From Burkholderiales bacterium (lineage in GTDB: Bacteria > Pseudomonadota > Gammaproteobacteria > Burkholderiales > SG8-39): a DNA stretch of 29,450 nt. The stretch lies in the NCBI GenBank assembly GCA_035718125.1, contig DASTHP010000188.1, positions 1 through 29,450 of the forward strand. Reading direction: 5' to 3'. The notes under the pieces were generated by a model that saw nothing but the letters and a program-made list of their open reading frames with translations, did not search any database and was not told the DNA's origin. Within the stretch, counting starts at the first letter, position 1. Every line of letters starts with the position of its first letter. The position numbers were made by a program, and so were the translations under genes. This document shows positions 1,273-8,494 of the stretch, piece after piece.

Positions 1273-1315
1273 GGTGCGATAGCGTACCGACCGGTTTCGG
1301 GCAACGACACAAGCT
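1273..1315 (+). promoter_or_regulatory. CRP-geometry dyad (GGTGC-GATAGC-GTACC) plus -10-like CAAGCT; promoter of the transglycosylase gene
   Basis: Dyad 1273-1288, 21-nt gap, CAAGCT 1310-1315, ATG 6 nt later. The same architecture recurs at 2034, 5203 and 7512. Confidence 0.65.
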
Positions 1316-2033: not shown

Positions 2034-2076
2034 GGTTCTGCAGCGTACAGACCCTGCGCGGGCGAGAGCGCAAGCT
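2034..2076 (+). promoter_or_regulatory. CRP-geometry dyad (GGTTC-TGCAGC-GTACA) plus -10-like CAAGCT; promoter of the serine hydrolase gene
   Basis: Dyad 2034-2049, 21-nt gap, CAAGCT 2071-2076, ATG 7 nt later with no SD. Confidence 0.65.
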
Positions 2077-3681: not shown

Positions 3682-3882
3682 CTACTTTTGCCGGTCCTGC
3701 CAGGCGTCGAGCTGCTTATCCGCCTCGTCCTTCGAGACGCCATACGATTCCTGGATCTTGCCGGAGAGCTGCTCGCGCTTGCCGGCGATCACGTCGAGCT
3801 GATCGTCGGTGAGCTTGCCCCACTGCTGCTTGACGTTGCCCTTGAACTGCTTCCAGTTGCCTTCAATGCGATCCCAGTTCAT
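3682..3882 (-). CDS. csbD: CsbD family general stress protein (66 aa)
   Basis: MNWDRIEGNWKQFKGNVKQQWGKLTDDQLDVIAGKREQLSGKIQESYG is a typical CsbD/YjbJ sequence; SD GAGGA. Confidence 0.95.
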   Translation of the reverse strand: MNWDRIEGNWKQFKGNVKQQWGKLTDDQLDVIAGKREQLSGKIQESYGVSKDEADKQLDAWQDRQK

Positions 3883-3984
3883 TGCGGGTTCCTCATGTTG
3901 GATTGACTCGAAACCGGCCCGGGCAGGCACCGGCAGTGCGATACGGCGGCAGCGTCCGTGTCCGGCGTGCCCTTCGCATCGGCC

Positions 3985-4056: not shown

Positions 4057-5172
4057 ATGAGCGACTGGCAGGGCGAGATTCTCGTGGTGGACGACGACGC
4101 GGGGAATCTGCTTGCCCTGGAAGCGTTGCTGGAACCATTGGGGCAGGTCGTGCTGCGCGCGCGCTCGGGCGCGGCGGCGCTGCGCCTGCTGCTCGATCAC
4201 GACCCCGCGGTGATCGTGCTCGACGTGCGCATGCCGCGCATGGACGGCTTCGAAACCGCGCAGCGGATCCGCGCCCGCGCGCGCTCGCGGCACATCCCGA
4301 TCATCTTCCTCACCGGCGTGTCCACGGAGACGGCAGCGGCGTTTCGCGGCTACGAAGTCGGCGCGGTGGATTACCTGATGAAGCCCGCGGTGCCGGAGGT
4401 GCTGCGCTCCAAGGTGTCCGTGTTCGTCGAGCTGCAGCGCAAGAACGCGGCGCTCGCCCGCGAGATCGGCGAGCGGCGGCTCGCCGAGCAGCGGCTGCGG
4501 GAGTCGCAGGCGCAGCTGCGCGCGCTCGCGGCGCGCCTGATCTCCATCCGCGAGGAGGAGCGCGCGCGCATCGCGCGCGAGATCCACGATGAGCTGGGGC
4601 AGGTCCTGACCGGCCTGAAGATGGACGTCGCCTGGCTGCGCAAGCGCCTCGGCAGGGACCAGGCGCCGCTGCTCGACAAGACCGAGACCATGCGCCGCCT
4701 GATCGATGCCACGATGCAGGTGGTGCGCAGGATCGCCACCGGCATGCGGCCGGAGATTCTCGACGACCTGGGCCTGGTGGCGGCGATCGGCTGGCAGGCG
4801 AAGGAATTCCAGAAGCGCATGGGCATCCGTTGCCGGGTCGAGCTGCCGGCGTCGCGCCGCGATCTGGGCAGCGAGCTGTCGACGGCGGTGTTCCGCATCT
4901 TCCAGGAGATCCTCACCAACATCGCGCGCCACGCCAGGGCCAGCAGCGTCGGCGTGCGGCTGCACATCTCGGCGAAGCGCCTCACGCTGGAAGTCGTCGA
5001 CGACGGCAGCGGCATTGCCGAGGCCGCGGTGCACGCGCGCGAATCCCTCGGGCTGCTGGGCATGCAGGAACGGGCGCAGCAGCTCGGCGGCGAGGTCAGC
5101 ATCCTTGGCCGGCGCGGCCGCGGCACCAGCGTGGCGCTTTCCATTCCGCTGCCGGTTGCGCCGCCGCACTAG
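4057..5172 (+). CDS. Cytoplasmic hybrid histidine kinase: REC - coiled coil - HisKA_3 - HATPase
   Basis: Intact REC (ILVVDDD...IVLDVRMP...FLTG...YLMKP); H-box REEERARIAREIHDELGQ; N/G boxes FQEILTNIARHA, VVDDGSG and GLLGMQERA. No TM or sensor domain. Confidence 0.92.
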   Translation: MSDWQGEILVVDDDAGNLLALEALLEPLGQVVLRARSGAAALRLLLDHDPAVIVLDVRMPRMDGFETAQRIRARARSRHIPIIFLTGVSTETAAAFRGYEVGAVDYLMKPAVPEVLRSKVSVFVELQRKNAALAREIGERRLAEQRLRESQAQLRALAARLISIREEERARIAREIHDELGQVLTGLKMDVAWLRKRLGRDQAPLLDKTETMRRLIDATMQVVRRIATGMRPEILDDLGLVAAIGWQAKEFQKRMGIRCRVELPASRRDLGSELSTAVFRIFQEILTNIARHARASSVGVRLHISAKRLTLEVVDDGSGIAEAAVHARESLGLLGMQERAQQLGGEVSILGRRGRGTSVALSIPLPVAPPH

Positions 5173-5202: not shown

Positions 5203-5245
5203 TGTTCGACAGCGTACAGATGGGCCGCGGCCTACAGTGCACTCT
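5203..5245 (+). promoter_or_regulatory. CRP-geometry dyad (TGTTC-GACAGC-GTACA) plus -10-like CACTCT; promoter of the PhoB-like gene
   Basis: Dyad 5203-5218, 21-nt gap, CACTCT 5240-5245; SD AAGGGG before ATG 5270. Confidence 0.62.
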
Positions 5246-5269: not shown

Positions 5270-5962
5270 ATGGCGGGCTCGGTATTGGTGGTGGAGAACG
5301 AGGAACCGGTGAGGCAGCTGCTTGCCGGCAATCTGCAGAGCGCGGGTTACCAGGTGCATTGCGCGGGCGATGTCGCCCAGGCCGAAACGATGATGCGTAC
5401 GGTCCGCCCGGACCTGGTGGTGCTCAACTGGATCCTGCCGGGAATTCCCGGGTTGCCGTTCGCCCGGCACCTGCGCGGCGACCGGCGCACCAAGGACATC
5501 TCGATCGTGCTGATCAGCGACCGCGCAGCCGAACAGGACAAGGTCGCCGCGCTGGAGGGCGGGGCGGACGACTACGTCACCAAGCCGTATTCCTGCAGGG
5601 AGCTGCTGGCGCGCATCAAGGCGGTGATGCGCCGGCGCGCGCCCCAGCTCGCCGACAGCGTGATCGAGAGCGGCGGGCTGCAGCTGGATCCGGCGGCGCG
5701 GCGCGTCAGCGCCGGCAATCGCGAGATCGAGCTGTGGACCACCGAGTTCCGGCTGCTGCATTTCTTCATGACGCATCCGGGGCGCATCTTCAGCCGCGCC
5801 ACGCTGCTCGACGAGGTCTGGGGCCACGACGCCTGCGTCGAGGAGCGCACCGTCGACGTCCACATCCGCCGCCTGCGCCAGGGGCTGGCGCCCGCCGGCT
5901 GCGACGTGCCGATCGAGACTGTGCGCGGCCTCGGCTACCGCTTCCGGGCCGAGCCCTGCTGA
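5270..5962 (+). CDS. PhoB-like OmpR-family regulator with a degenerate (pseudo-)receiver domain
   Basis: The winged-helix domain is close to PhoB (TEFRLLHFFMTHP, RTVDVHIRRLR, TVRGLGYRF). The receiver has VVENE and DLVVLNWILPG, i.e. Asn in place of the conserved Asp residues. Confidence 0.9.
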   Translation: MAGSVLVVENEEPVRQLLAGNLQSAGYQVHCAGDVAQAETMMRTVRPDLVVLNWILPGIPGLPFARHLRGDRRTKDISIVLISDRAAEQDKVAALEGGADDYVTKPYSCRELLARIKAVMRRRAPQLADSVIESGGLQLDPAARRVSAGNREIELWTTEFRLLHFFMTHPGRIFSRATLLDEVWGHDACVEERTVDVHIRRLRQGLAPAGCDVPIETVRGLGYRFRAEPC

Positions 5963-7366
5963 TCAGTAGGCGTTCTGCTTTCGCAGCACCACGACCACGG
6001 TCATGAGCACGATCTTGAGGTCGAGCAGCGGCGACCAGTTGCGCAGGTAGGCCAGGTCGTACTCGACGCGCGCGCGCATCTTCTCGAGCGTATCCGTCTC
6101 GCCGCGCAGCCCGTTGACCTGCGCCAGGCCGGTGATGCCGGGCCGCACCTTGTGCCGCACCATGTAGCTGGGGATCAGCTTGCGGTACATCTCGTTGTGG
6201 GCGACGGCGTGCGGCCTGGGTCCGACCACGCTCATGCGGCCCTGCAGGACATTGACGAACTGCGGCAGCTCGTCGAGCGAGTACTTGCGCAGCACGGCGC
6301 CCAGCGGCGTCACGCGCGGGTCGCCGCGCGTGGCCTGCGTCACCACGCCGCCGTCCTCCAGCGCGGACATGGAGCGGAACTTGTAGACGAAGATCTCCCT
6401 GCCGTCCAGCCCGTAGCGGCGCTGCTTGAACAGCACCGGCCCGGGCGAACTGTGCTTCACCGCGAGCGCGATGGCCAGCATCAGCGGCGCGATCAGGACC
6501 AGGATCGCCGAGGCGAGGACGATGTCGATCGCGCGCTTGAGCAGCCCGTCCATCCCGTAGAAGGGCGACTCGCACACCGCGAGCACCGGCAAGCCGCCGA
6601 TGGTCTGCACGCGCGCCTGGATCAGGTCGCACAGGAAGATGTCCGGCGCGAAGTAGATGGAGGCCGTGGTGTCGTGCAGCGCCTCCAGCAGCGCAAGGAT
6701 GCGCGGCTGCGCGGTCATGGGCAGGGTGATGTAGATCATGTCGATGTGCTGCGCACGCACGTATTCCGCCAGCTGCCCGAGGTTGCCGAGGTTGCGCCGC
6801 GCGCCCGCATCGCCGTCCCGCGGCGTGGCGCGGTCATCGAAGTAGCCGGCAAAGCGGATGCCGGTCAATGGACGATCGCGCAGATGCGCGCCCAGATCGC
6901 GGCCCAGCCCGTTCGCGCCGACGATGACCGCGGTTCTCTGCAGGCCTTCGGCAGCCAGCAGTCTGGGCAGCAGCACGGGCACCAGCCGGTGGGCGGCGAA
7001 CAGGGCGAGCGGCGTCGCGACCACCCAGGCGAGGATGGCGCGGGCATCGAAGTTCGCCAGCGTTCCCGAGGCCCAGCCGAGCAGGAGCAGCAGCGCGACC
7101 ATCGCCAGCCATTCGCTGGCGATGCCCAGGGCCAGCTCGAGGGCTTTCTCCGTATCGCGCGCGAGATTGCCCGGGAAGGTTATCGAGAACACGAGCAGCG
7201 CAAGGATCAGATGGGACCCGCCGAAGCGCCCGTCGAACCACAGGGCGCAGGCCACCAGCGAGACGACCGCCACTGCCGGGTCGACCGCGGCCCGCAGCAA
7301 TGCCGCCGGACTGGGCTGACTCGGCAGCAAGCGCGGATGCGTGTGTGGGTACGGGAGCAAGGTCAT
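5963..7366 (-). CDS. wcaJ: Undecaprenyl-phosphate glucose phosphotransferase (WcaJ/EpsB-type priming transferase)
   Basis: Four N-terminal TM segments, IVGAN linker domain, and a Bac_transf domain (KRAIDIV, FKQRRYG, YKFRSM, DPRVT, SLDELPQFVNVLQGRMSVVGPRPH, VRPGITGLAQVNG). Confidence 0.93.
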   Translation of the reverse strand: MTLLPYPHTHPRLLPSQPSPAALLRAAVDPAVAVVSLVACALWFDGRFGGSHLILALLVFSITFPGNLARDTEKALELALGIASEWLAMVALLLLLGWASGTLANFDARAILAWVVATPLALFAAHRLVPVLLPRLLAAEGLQRTAVIVGANGLGRDLGAHLRDRPLTGIRFAGYFDDRATPRDGDAGARRNLGNLGQLAEYVRAQHIDMIYITLPMTAQPRILALLEALHDTTASIYFAPDIFLCDLIQARVQTIGGLPVLAVCESPFYGMDGLLKRAIDIVLASAILVLIAPLMLAIALAVKHSSPGPVLFKQRRYGLDGREIFVYKFRSMSALEDGGVVTQATRGDPRVTPLGAVLRKYSLDELPQFVNVLQGRMSVVGPRPHAVAHNEMYRKLIPSYMVRHKVRPGITGLAQVNGLRGETDTLEKMRARVEYDLAYLRNWSPLLDLKIVLMTVVVVLRKQNAY

Positions 7367-7452
7367 GAATGCAGTGCGCGAGCGCTGGATTGCCGGAGCC
7401 CAGACTAGCGCAGGCCGGGCACGGCGATGACGCGGGCTCGTGCACCTGGCGA

Positions 7453-7468
7453 TAGCTCCATCGGACTA
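7453..7468. promoter_or_regulatory. Putative EPS-locus operator (TAGCTC-CATC-GGACTA) in the divergent wcaJ/epsA region
   Basis: Imperfect copy of the TAGTCC-N4-GGACYA dyad seen at 8986, 16374 and 22540. Confidence 0.4.
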
Positions 7469-7511: not shown

Positions 7512-7554
7512 GGTGCGACAGCGTACATACCGCCGCCGGCGCACAGGCTACGCT
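7512..7554 (+). promoter_or_regulatory. CRP-geometry dyad (GGTGC-GACAGC-GTACA) plus -10 TACGCT; promoter of epsA
   Basis: Dyad 7512-7527, 21-nt gap, TACGCT 7549-7554, which puts the dyad centre at about -41.5. SD AGGA before GTG 7616. Confidence 0.68.
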
Positions 7555-7615: not shown

Positions 7616-8494
7616 GTGCTACTCAGCCAAGCGCAGACGCCGCATCGCCAGAAGCTCCTGCCGCCCGCATTCGCGGATGGGGTCGTGGACTACGCGAGCC
7701 CCGCCGGGGAGACCATCGCCGCCAACGGCAATCCGCAAGCGCTGAGCGACCTCGACGTCGAAATCCTGATGCTCAATCTGGACGCCTCCCTCAGGGTGTA
7801 CGAGCGCGAGCATTTCTTCAGCTGGACACAGGGCGTGCTGCAGAGCCTGATCAAGCATGAAGTCCTGGTCTGCGCCTTGCACAGCGGCGAACCGCCGACG
7901 CTGCGCGCCGACAGCTTCTCGATGGTTGCGGCGGAGCAGGCGCACTTCGGCGAGCTGTTCGTGCGCGACGCGTCGGTCGCGCTGGGCCTGATCAAGAGCT
8001 GGGAAGACCGCGGGTTCCGGCCGCTGATCTGCGATGCCACCGACGCGCCGTTCTCGCGCGGCCTGTTCGCGCAGGAACTCGGGCGCGTGAGCGCCACGCA
8101 GATCCTGGCGCACGGCACGCACGACGCGCAGGGACGCACGCGCGGCTTCTACGCGTTCGTCTGCGCTCCGGGAACGCTCGGCCCGCGGCACGCCTACCTG
8201 GCGCGCCTGGTGACGCCTTCCCTGCACGCCGCCTGGGTGCGCACCGAGGTCAACGGCCGCGCCAAGGGCAACGACCCGGTGCCACGCGAGCAAGCCGGAA
8301 GGATCACCACGCGCGAGGAAGAGATCCTGCGCTGGGTCGCGCTCGGCAAGAGCAACTTCGAGATCGGCGCCATCCTCGGCATCAGCCCTCTGACCGTGAA
8401 GAACCATGTGCAGAAGATTCTGCGCAAGCTGAATGTCGTCAACCGCGCCCAGGCCGTCGGCAAGGCCTCGGAACTGCGCATGCTCAGGAACTGA
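7616..8494 (+). CDS. epsA: LuxR-family transcriptional regulator, EpsA type
   Basis: C-terminal LuxR HTH (TTREEEILRWVALGKSNFEIGAILGISPLTVKNHVQKILRKLNVVNRAQAV); N-terminal REHFFSWTQGVLQSLIKHE region without REC; position next to the priming transferase and epsEFG. Confidence 0.85.
   Translation: MLLSQAQTPHRQKLLPPAFADGVVDYASPAGETIAANGNPQALSDLDVEILMLNLDASLRVYEREHFFSWTQGVLQSLIKHEVLVCALHSGEPPTLRADSFSMVAAEQAHFGELFVRDASVALGLIKSWEDRGFRPLICDATDAPFSRGLFAQELGRVSATQILAHGTHDAQGRTRGFYAFVCAPGTLGPRHAYLARLVTPSLHAAWVRTEVNGRAKGNDPVPREQAGRITTREEEILRWVALGKSNFEIGAILGISPLTVKNHVQKILRKLNVVNRAQAVGKASELRMLRN

Follow-up and report, generated by a model that had tools for sequence, protein, structure and literature searches.

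Among OmpR-type regulators, about 2% have a receiver that lacks the phosphorylatable aspartate; Asn and Ser rank second and third among the residues that replace it (PMC4395418). Alterations in these receivers fall most often on the phospho-Asp and on the second acidic-pair Asp (PMC12548384), and how such pseudo-receivers are switched on and off is still unknown according to a 2025 review (PMC12632262). Here we describe a gene for a PhoB-like regulator of this kind, located at positions 5270-5962 of contig DASTHP010000188.1 (assembly GCA_035718125.1; Burkholderiales, GTDB lineage SG8-39) beside genes for exopolysaccharide (EPS) production. The window, i.e. the whole stretch of DNA that was analyzed, comprises 29,450 nucleotides; the assembly is a metagenome-assembled genome of an uncultured organism (2.59 Mb, 361 contigs, 78.5% complete). 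The PhoB-like protein is probably a PhoB-derived transcription factor of the OmpR/PhoB family with an aspartate-less receiver, a working regulator of the EPS module and, in our proposal, independent of phosphorylation.

Several described regulators are comparable. E. coli PhoB has the same two-domain fold, and its residues in the recognition helix, the wing, Trp184/Gly185 and the alpha4-beta5-alpha5 face are identical to those of the PhoB-like protein, which differs from PhoB in the absence of Asp10 and Asp53, in having no PhoR or pst neighbor, in its separate clade, and in its position in an EPS locus. RitR of Streptococcus pneumoniae, the archetype of the aspartate-less receivers, is likewise of the OmpR/PhoB type, with Asn53 and an altered acidic pocket (PMC4395418); however, RitR is an orphan repressor of iron transport in a Gram-positive bacterium, whereas the PhoB-like gene adjoins a kinase gene and its product is much closer to true PhoB. 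CmrT, encoded in the cmrRST genes of Clostridioides difficile, is likewise an OmpR-family protein with an aspartate-less receiver encoded together with a sensor kinase, and shares the pattern of an altered phospho-Asp and second acidic-pair Asp with the T/S and K positions kept; CmrT is reported to be constitutively dimeric, with its output set by expression of the operon (PMC12548384). It differs in carrying Glu at the phosphorylation site, in the second, phosphorylatable regulator CmrR alongside (the module described here holds no second OmpR-type regulator), and in its unrelated lineage and targets. HP1043 (HsrA) of Helicobacter pylori and ChxR of Chlamydia are further phosphorylation-independent members of the OmpR/PhoB family (PMC8345958, PMC3960148), but their receivers are highly degenerate, and they are orphans, essential or global regulators, and not close to PhoB. 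Aspartate-less OmpR/PhoB regulators are already known from RitR, CmrT and ChxR, and the PhoB-like protein described here is a further member of this kind.

A laboratory counterpart exists as well. Two constitutively active PhoB receiver mutants are, by its title, the subject of reference 33 of PMC4395418. The chain sequence of PDB entry 2JB9, an E. coli PhoB receiver, reads D10A/D53E; this mutant is altered at the same two positions as the PhoB-like protein, which has Asn and not Glu at position 53. The D10A/D53E mutant is reportedly one of those two constitutively active forms. Since Asn is no phosphomimic, constitutive activity of the PhoB-like protein cannot be assumed.

The PhoB-like protein and its canonical counterpart

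The gene is preceded by AAGGGG and has the following extent:

5270-5962, forward strand: PhoB-derived aspartate-less response regulator (receiver and winged helix), 230 amino acids, ATG start

The predicted protein matches Pfam Response_reg (PF00072) at residues 5-117 (E = 1.2e-21) and Trans_reg_C (PF00486) at residues 151-225 (E = 2.1e-26), i.e. it consists of the N-terminal receiver and the C-terminal winged helix of the OmpR/PhoB family and is a member of it. The alignment to the E. coli PhoB chains 1B00 (residues 1-126) and 1GXP (125-226) is free of gaps, and E. coli PhoB numbering is therefore valid for the protein. Position 53 is Asn (codon AAC, 5426-5428; motif DLVVLNWILPG), and so is position 10 (codon AAC, 5297-5299; motif VVENE); Lys105 is retained (codon 5582-5584; motif YVTKP), Ser83 and Tyr102 are present, and the recognition helix RTVDVHIRRLR occupies residues 193-203 (nucleotides 5846-5878). 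The receiver is recognizable and has Asn53 in place of the phosphorylation-site Asp in this alignment, which makes it an aspartate-less receiver; the protein is thereby predicted to be unable to take a phosphoryl group at the canonical Asp site.

The protein scored 295.7 bits against the NCBIfam PhoB equivalog TIGR02154, half a bit short of the cut-off (296.2), and 251 against a cut-off of 471 with a second PhoB model, NF007546. It is not a PhoB in the sense of TIGR02154, neither by score nor by the residues Asp10 and Asp53, by a PhoR or pho/pst neighborhood, or by a place among the PhoR-linked PhoBs in the tree (below).

A second PhoB-family gene was found on contig C61; its product scored 356.9 bits against TIGR02154 and shows EDE and D-W-M-L-P-G, the canonical motifs. 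It shares 55% identity with the PhoB-like protein, and a PAS-HisKA phoR gene lies directly downstream. PstS (TIGR00975) was not found in the assembly, which says little given the incompleteness of the genome (78.5%). Upstream of the C61 phoB gene (L001, 2182-2214), two Pho-box-like half-sites, CCGTCAT and TCGTCAC, are spaced 22 bp start to start just before the start codon; they may represent an autoregulatory Pho box.

A preliminary description of the window, made from its sequence, had proposed a PhoB paralogue with Asn at the acceptor position (AAC) and a VVENE pocket, with the Lys of YVTKP and a PhoB-like helix RTVDVHIRRLR kept, and with no phoR or pst gene adjacent. These observations hold for codons 53 and 10 of the reading frame, for the DNA-contact residues, which are the same as in canonical PhoB, and for the neighbors, which are a REC-HisKA_3 kinase gene and a WcaJ-type glycosyltransferase gene. 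The kinase gene, intact and inherited together with the PhoB-like gene, had gone unmentioned in that description. The paralogy is borne out by the PhoR-linked PhoB of C61; the canonical phoB-phoR pair that the preliminary description had supposed elsewhere in the genome is thus present, and the PhoB-like gene is not the genome's sole PhoB.

The positions of DNA contacts and of the dimer face were assigned as we take them to be from PhoB structures; their conservation was computed. The residues R193, T194, V197, H198, R200, R201, R203, T217 and R219, as well as Trp184/Gly185 of the transactivation loop, are identical in canonical PhoB, in members of the clade with Asp53, and in Asp-less members; the same three groups share the alpha4-beta5-alpha5 residues E88, K91, E96, D100, D101, E111, R115, K117, A118, R121 and R122. 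Other positions set the clade apart. An acidic residue (Asp or Glu) follows the conserved Ser83 at position 84 in the crown clade, where every canonical PhoB has Ala, and further clade-specific residues are Arg46, Ser83, Tyr107, Trp156-Thr157, His186 and Ala188, of which W156/T157 and H186/A188 flank the DNA-binding helices. Cys31 (5360-5362) is found in 123 of 136 EPS-linked clade members, and canonical PhoB has Arg, Glu or Leu there.

RitR is controlled through a cysteine in its linker. A conserved regulatory cysteine in the receiver-linker region does not occur in the PhoB-like protein: its Cys31 is part of the receiver core region, and position 109, considered as the site of a redox cysteine like that of RitR, was rejected, as Cys109 is not conserved (6 of 60 Asp-less relatives, with Gly in 47).

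Distribution and conservation of the missing aspartate

The 120 nearest database proteins are 73-94% identical to the PhoB-like protein and are mostly labelled 'PhoB' at source. All of those with at least 81% identity have Asn or Ser at position 53, and nearly all of those with 73-80% have retained Asp53; the residues seen at position 10 across the whole set are D, N, H, E, G and Q. A search against representatives at 50% identity was uninformative, as the clade merges into the general PhoB cluster there, and a related-locus search of genome contigs gave nearly only canonical PhoBs, which were used as the outgroup. In a sample of 90 PhoR-linked PhoBs from Betaproteobacteria and relatives, all 90 sequences have Glu9, Asp10, Glu11, Asp53, Met55, Thr83 and Ala84; given this invariance of Glu9-Asp10-Glu11 and Asp53, the Asn10/Asn53 pair of the PhoB-like protein is not a matter of chance.

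A maximum-likelihood tree was built without columns 10 and 53, with supports from the Shimodaira-Hasegawa-like approximate likelihood-ratio test (SH-aLRT); locus L019 of genome G022 was left out of the alignments and the tree. Thirty PhoR-linked sequences were split from the EPS-linked sequences and the 120 nearest homologues (SH-aLRT 99), and a clade of 56 rows (support 99) has exclusively Asn or Ser at position 53, with the Ser53 lineages nested inside the Asn53 clade; a pair with Glu53 sits apart from it. On the tree, a minimum of three changes between Asp and non-Asp is needed for position 53, and a minimum of 20 changes for position 10. It implies two or more losses of Asp53, one giving Asn/Ser and another, independent one giving Glu in the sister group; the Mg-binding Asp10 is freely replaced across the EPS-linked clade.

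The nearest relatives (L039, P0001-P0004, metagenome contigs; 92-97% identity) combine Asp10 with Asn53, and Asn10 is therefore a recent change in the lineage of the window. The preliminary description had pointed to two separate Asp-to-Asn changes, and had proposed to test whether the pair is conserved under purifying selection. Both Asn residues are real, and the loss at position 53 is conserved and under such selection; the pairing was overstated, as only Asn53 is common to the near orthologues, among which Asn10 is private to this lineage, recurring elsewhere in the clade.

Pairwise ratios of non-synonymous to synonymous substitution (dN/dS, Nei-Gojobori) among seven orthologues were 0.09-0.30 for the PhoB-like gene, with 0.10-0.25 in the receiver and 0.04-0.38 in the DNA-binding domain; canonical phoB gave 0.07-0.15 for the same genome pairs. 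Values of 0.09-0.30 indicate purifying selection on the PhoB-like gene. The Asn/Ser53 lineage diversified under this selection and retained the Ser, Lys and Tyr switch residues along with the dimer face and the DNA contacts. A strain-specific decay, in which a PhoB duplicate drifts towards a pseudogene, would agree with the private Asn10 and with a dN/dS somewhat above that of canonical phoB; however, the reading frame is open in every orthologue, Asn or Ser is fixed at position 53 over the 56-row clade at 80-97% identity, dN/dS is well under 1 in both domains, and synteny is conserved. Decay is refuted by these conservation data, and we give it virtually no credence. Orthologues that retain the Asp, which would have spoken for such decay, do not occur in the 56-row clade. 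The clade, the dN/dS values and the conserved synteny together argue that the loss of the Asp is a fixed, selected state and not a lesion.

The exopolysaccharide module and its dyad-bearing promoters

The genes around the PhoB-like gene are as follows:

3682-3930, reverse strand: CsbD-like stress protein gene, divergent from the kinase gene; a conserved module neighbor
4057-5172, forward strand: cytoplasmic REC-HisKA_3-HATPase_c hybrid kinase; the longest open reading frame starts at GTG 3958, and ATG 4057 is the start shared with relatives
5963-7366, reverse strand: undecaprenyl-phosphate glucose phosphotransferase (WcaJ type, TIGR03023), convergent with the PhoB-like gene
7616-8494, forward strand: EpsA-family LuxR/GerE regulator (TIGR03020; 191.5 bits, cut-off 170)

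The order is thus csbD (-), kinase (+), PhoB-like gene (+), WcaJ-type priming transferase (-) and epsA (+), with genes for export, Wzz, EpsG-like and Wzy proteins among those that follow. This arrangement recurs in all six genus relatives with an orthologue that were examined (seven genus loci including the window) and in L134 and L135, two genomes of another family of the order. Of 17 metagenome contigs fetched via the codon pattern for the Asn/Ser53 motif, those with sufficient reach have the kinase gene upstream (14 of 14) and the glycosyltransferase gene downstream (12 of 12); with the same proviso, the module order holds for all 24 Asn53 loci (7 genus, 17 metagenome). Kinase orthologues (at least 74% identity) are restricted to genomes that hold the PhoB paralogue, and in these orthologues the catalytic motifs (receiver Asp, H-box His, N and G boxes) are intact throughout. 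The PhoB-like gene is hence a part of an EPS regulatory module and has its own dyad-bearing promoter (below). The tree and the gene neighborhoods place its origin in a clade whose PhoB paralogues are linked not to phoR but to Wzx/Wzy exopolysaccharide loci of the EpsA type.

The orthologue is present in eight of 24 other species genomes of the genus (a tally that includes G022), and a clade member in five of 400 other genomes sampled across the order; EpsA is encoded in 74 of 401 genomes of the order (including G229). G022 and G229 are unpublished, and no single finding depends on them. By these counts, the module is an accessory add-on to some EpsA loci. Exosortase (PF09721) was not found in this 78%-complete genome, and the 'XrtB/PEP-CTERM-associated' part of the EpsA family name is unverified here. 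In our literature search, no paper was found that links a PhoB-like regulator to EpsA-type loci.

A second PhoB-like type (60-67% identity) lies beside a second pair of priming-transferase and epsA genes in four genus genomes (L045, G007:C84; L046, G005:C280; L047, G003:C415; L048, G010:C241). L045 with Asn10/Glu53 and L046 with Asp10/Glu53 are natural near-copies of the D10A/D53E mutant of PhoB. In L046, a gene for a di-heme cytochrome c peroxidase (MauG-type) is located upstream of the second-type gene, and L047 encodes a similar C-terminal peptide there.

Some individual features of these loci were also noted. The stop codons of the PhoB-like gene (TGA, 5960-5962) and of the convergent transferase gene (5963-5965) abut, and the gap is about 6-40 nt (mostly 6-27) in relatives; only a weak hairpin (5955-5970) was seen, and read-through of the PhoB-like gene antisense to the transferase gene, with transcriptional interference, is possible. 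The kinase of G003 (L042, G003:C251) is without 14 residues of the coiled linker between receiver and H-box region, the rest being intact. The epsA orthologue of G017 (L040, 12022-12898; G017:C4) is in two pieces in different frames, with a break near residues 118-120 that is either a frameshift or an assembly error.

A conserved dyad, termed dyad 1, recurs in the window with the consensus TGTNCG-N4-CGNACA, 21 nt, YAnnCT:

5203-5218, forward strand: dyad 1 copy, TGTTCGACAGCGTACA, promoter of the PhoB-like gene; 21 nt, then CACTCT (5240-5245), a -10-like hexamer
7512-7527, forward strand: dyad 1 copy upstream of epsA; 21 nt, then TACGCT (7549-7554)
1273-1288, forward strand: dyad 1 copy upstream of the SLT transglycosylase gene; 21 nt, then CAAGCT (1310-1315)
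2034-2049, forward strand: weaker dyad 1 copy upstream of the beta-lactamase-fold hydrolase gene; 21 nt, then CAAGCT (2071-2076)

The copy before the PhoB-like gene, which lies in a gap of 97 nt and is followed by a good Shine-Dalgarno sequence, is the dyad that the preliminary description had placed in this promoter. The sites are conserved in the orthologous loci. The 12-mer core CGACAGCGTACA occurs exactly twice in the 2.59-Mb assembly (5207 and 7516), and the 14-mer GTKCGANAGCGNAC matches three times, each time inside the window. With a central pyrimidine, the 14-mer averages about three matches per genome in the nine genomes that have the module and about 0.3 in the 16 that lack it; as the counts track the module-bearing genomes, dyad 1 is the mark of a local regulon that accompanies the module from genome to genome.

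A genus-wide factor for dyad 1, considered for the recurring GTGCGAAAGCGCAC matches in module-less genomes, was dropped, as these are probably not regulatory sites; of two module-less loci with a forward-strand copy of GTGCGAAAGCGCAC, one has it inside a gltX-like coding sequence, and in the other it overlaps a gene start. Twenty EpsA loci of other families compared for dyad 1 are strongly diverged (28-40% EpsA identity). In L173 (G041:C4, from a different genus within the family), a distant epsA homologue has a site resembling dyad 1, TGTGCGATACCGAACA (position 1394), about 215 nt upstream, and a gene for an OmpR-family regulator (39% identical to the PhoB-like protein) is about 2 kb away; this is a single case with one mismatch and may be due to chance. 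A second conserved element, TAGCTCCATCGGACTAG, is located at 7443-7465 between the transferase gene and epsA, and a similar element is found also in distant EPS-linked loci without dyad 1 (L045-L047, L053, L134-L136).

A Pho box (TGTCA-N6-TGTCA) had no match in the window with up to one mismatch, and three with up to two mismatches versus 11.5 expected; a hand search of the intergenic regions for TGTCA-like repeats with 11-bp spacing gave none that is conserved across the orthologous loci. These results bear on the suggestion, made in the preliminary description, that the PhoB-like protein acts on the phosphate regulon, where it would compete with phosphorylated PhoB at Pho boxes or form mixed dimers with it and so couple stress and EPS induction to phosphate. 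Such a role would agree with the match to canonical PhoB in the DNA-contact and alpha4-beta5-alpha5 residues and with the encoding of both proteins in one genome. There is also a precedent for a link between phosphate and EPS in Sinorhizobium meliloti, where PhoB controls EPS II. However, the gene's linkage in the loci seen is strictly with the EPS module, and none was seen with pho/pst genes; the separation of the clade from PhoR-linked PhoB is old (about 55% identity, support 99), and both domains carry many changes specific to the clade (e.g. W156/T157, H186/A188). The coupling was not borne out, with every locus seen linked to EPS; competition at Pho boxes is not favored because the window holds none, and we regard an action on the phosphate regulon as unlikely.

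Dyad 1 has two TGT half-sites, 11 bp apart and inverted, and a candidate for the factor that reads it is the PhoB-like protein; binding would need to be head-to-head, as has been modelled for HP1043 (PMC8345958). A factor of the CRP/FNR type fits the geometry of the dyad equally well. That the PhoB-like protein reads dyad 1 in this manner (TGT-N10-ACA, 11 bp, centered at -41.5) at its own promoter and at those of epsA and the SLT transglycosylase and hydrolase genes, gated by binding of the kinase and not by phosphotransfer, is a tentative and rather doubtful proposition. If true, the two genes would represent a two-component pair that keeps both proteins but operates without His-to-Asp transfer to the regulator.

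Mode of action and implications

In the mechanism that we propose, a phosphorylation-independent dimer of the PhoB-like protein would activate or repress the local EPS and envelope-stress genes, with its output set mainly by the amount made from the dyad-1 promoter and perhaps modulated, other than by phosphotransfer, through protein contact with the neighboring kinase; phosphate would be handled separately by the true PhoB-PhoR pair. The Ser53 lineages nested in the clade argue that the Asp is not needed.

Several points weigh against this proposal. Independence of phosphorylation is deduced solely from the missing Asp, in an uncultured organism represented by sequence data. The dN/dS of the PhoB-like gene is about 1.5-3 times that of canonical phoB in most genome pairs, i.e. 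the constraint is somewhat relaxed, and synteny was read in genomes of the genus and order and in metagenome contigs, with the Ser53 subgroup and most database homologues lying outside these. The window has no canonical Pho-box-like direct repeat, though the DNA-contact residues are those of PhoB. It is also odd that a regulator with no need of a kinase should keep an intact one as its neighbor, and Asn at the acceptor position can deamidate to Asp, as reported for another receiver in work that PMC4395418 cites.

Alternatively, the protein could be a conventional partner of the REC-HisKA_3 kinase. Phosphorylation would then follow the conversion of Asn53 to Asp by deamidation, spontaneous or enzymatic, or would take place on Ser53 or a different residue. 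The kinase is intact, adjoining and strictly co-inherited, Lys105, Ser83 and Tyr102 are retained, and such deamidation has been reported in another receiver (cited in PMC4395418). The Ser53 lineages, however, cannot deamidate to Asp, and many members, the PhoB-like protein of the window among them, have lost Asp10 as well and with it the main Mg ligand. In addition, HisKA_3 kinases normally pair with NarL-type and not with OmpR-type regulators. We consider conventional phosphorylation very unlikely.

A further alternative is that the protein acts mainly through protein contacts, either as a decoy on the DHp domain of the kinase that would modulate signaling to another regulator, or by being held and released by the kinase without phosphotransfer. 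Kinase and regulator continue to be inherited together after the loss of the Asp, and there is a precedent for a kinase that controls its regulator allosterically, over and above phosphorylation (PMC4251995). The DNA-binding domain, however, is constrained like the receiver (dN/dS 0.04-0.38) and its contact residues are invariant, for which reason DNA binding is evidently kept. Action mainly by contacts is improbable in our view; it overlaps with the proposal of an aspartate-less, DNA-binding regulator of the EPS module and does not exclude it.

Annotation pipelines label the clade 'PhoB' despite the missing acceptor Asp and the missing PhoR/pst context, which could mislead readings of phosphate regulation in soil and sediment Burkholderiales. 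The clade also provides a natural series in one orthologous context, with DD, ND/HD/ED, DN/NN and NS/DS at positions 10/53, and DE/NE in the sister group; members with Asp53 and Asn53 are about 80% identical and have the same kinase neighbor, and are good material for swap experiments on the switching of pseudo-receivers. EpsA-type EPS loci, whose control is poorly understood, gain a further regulator in the PhoB-like protein.

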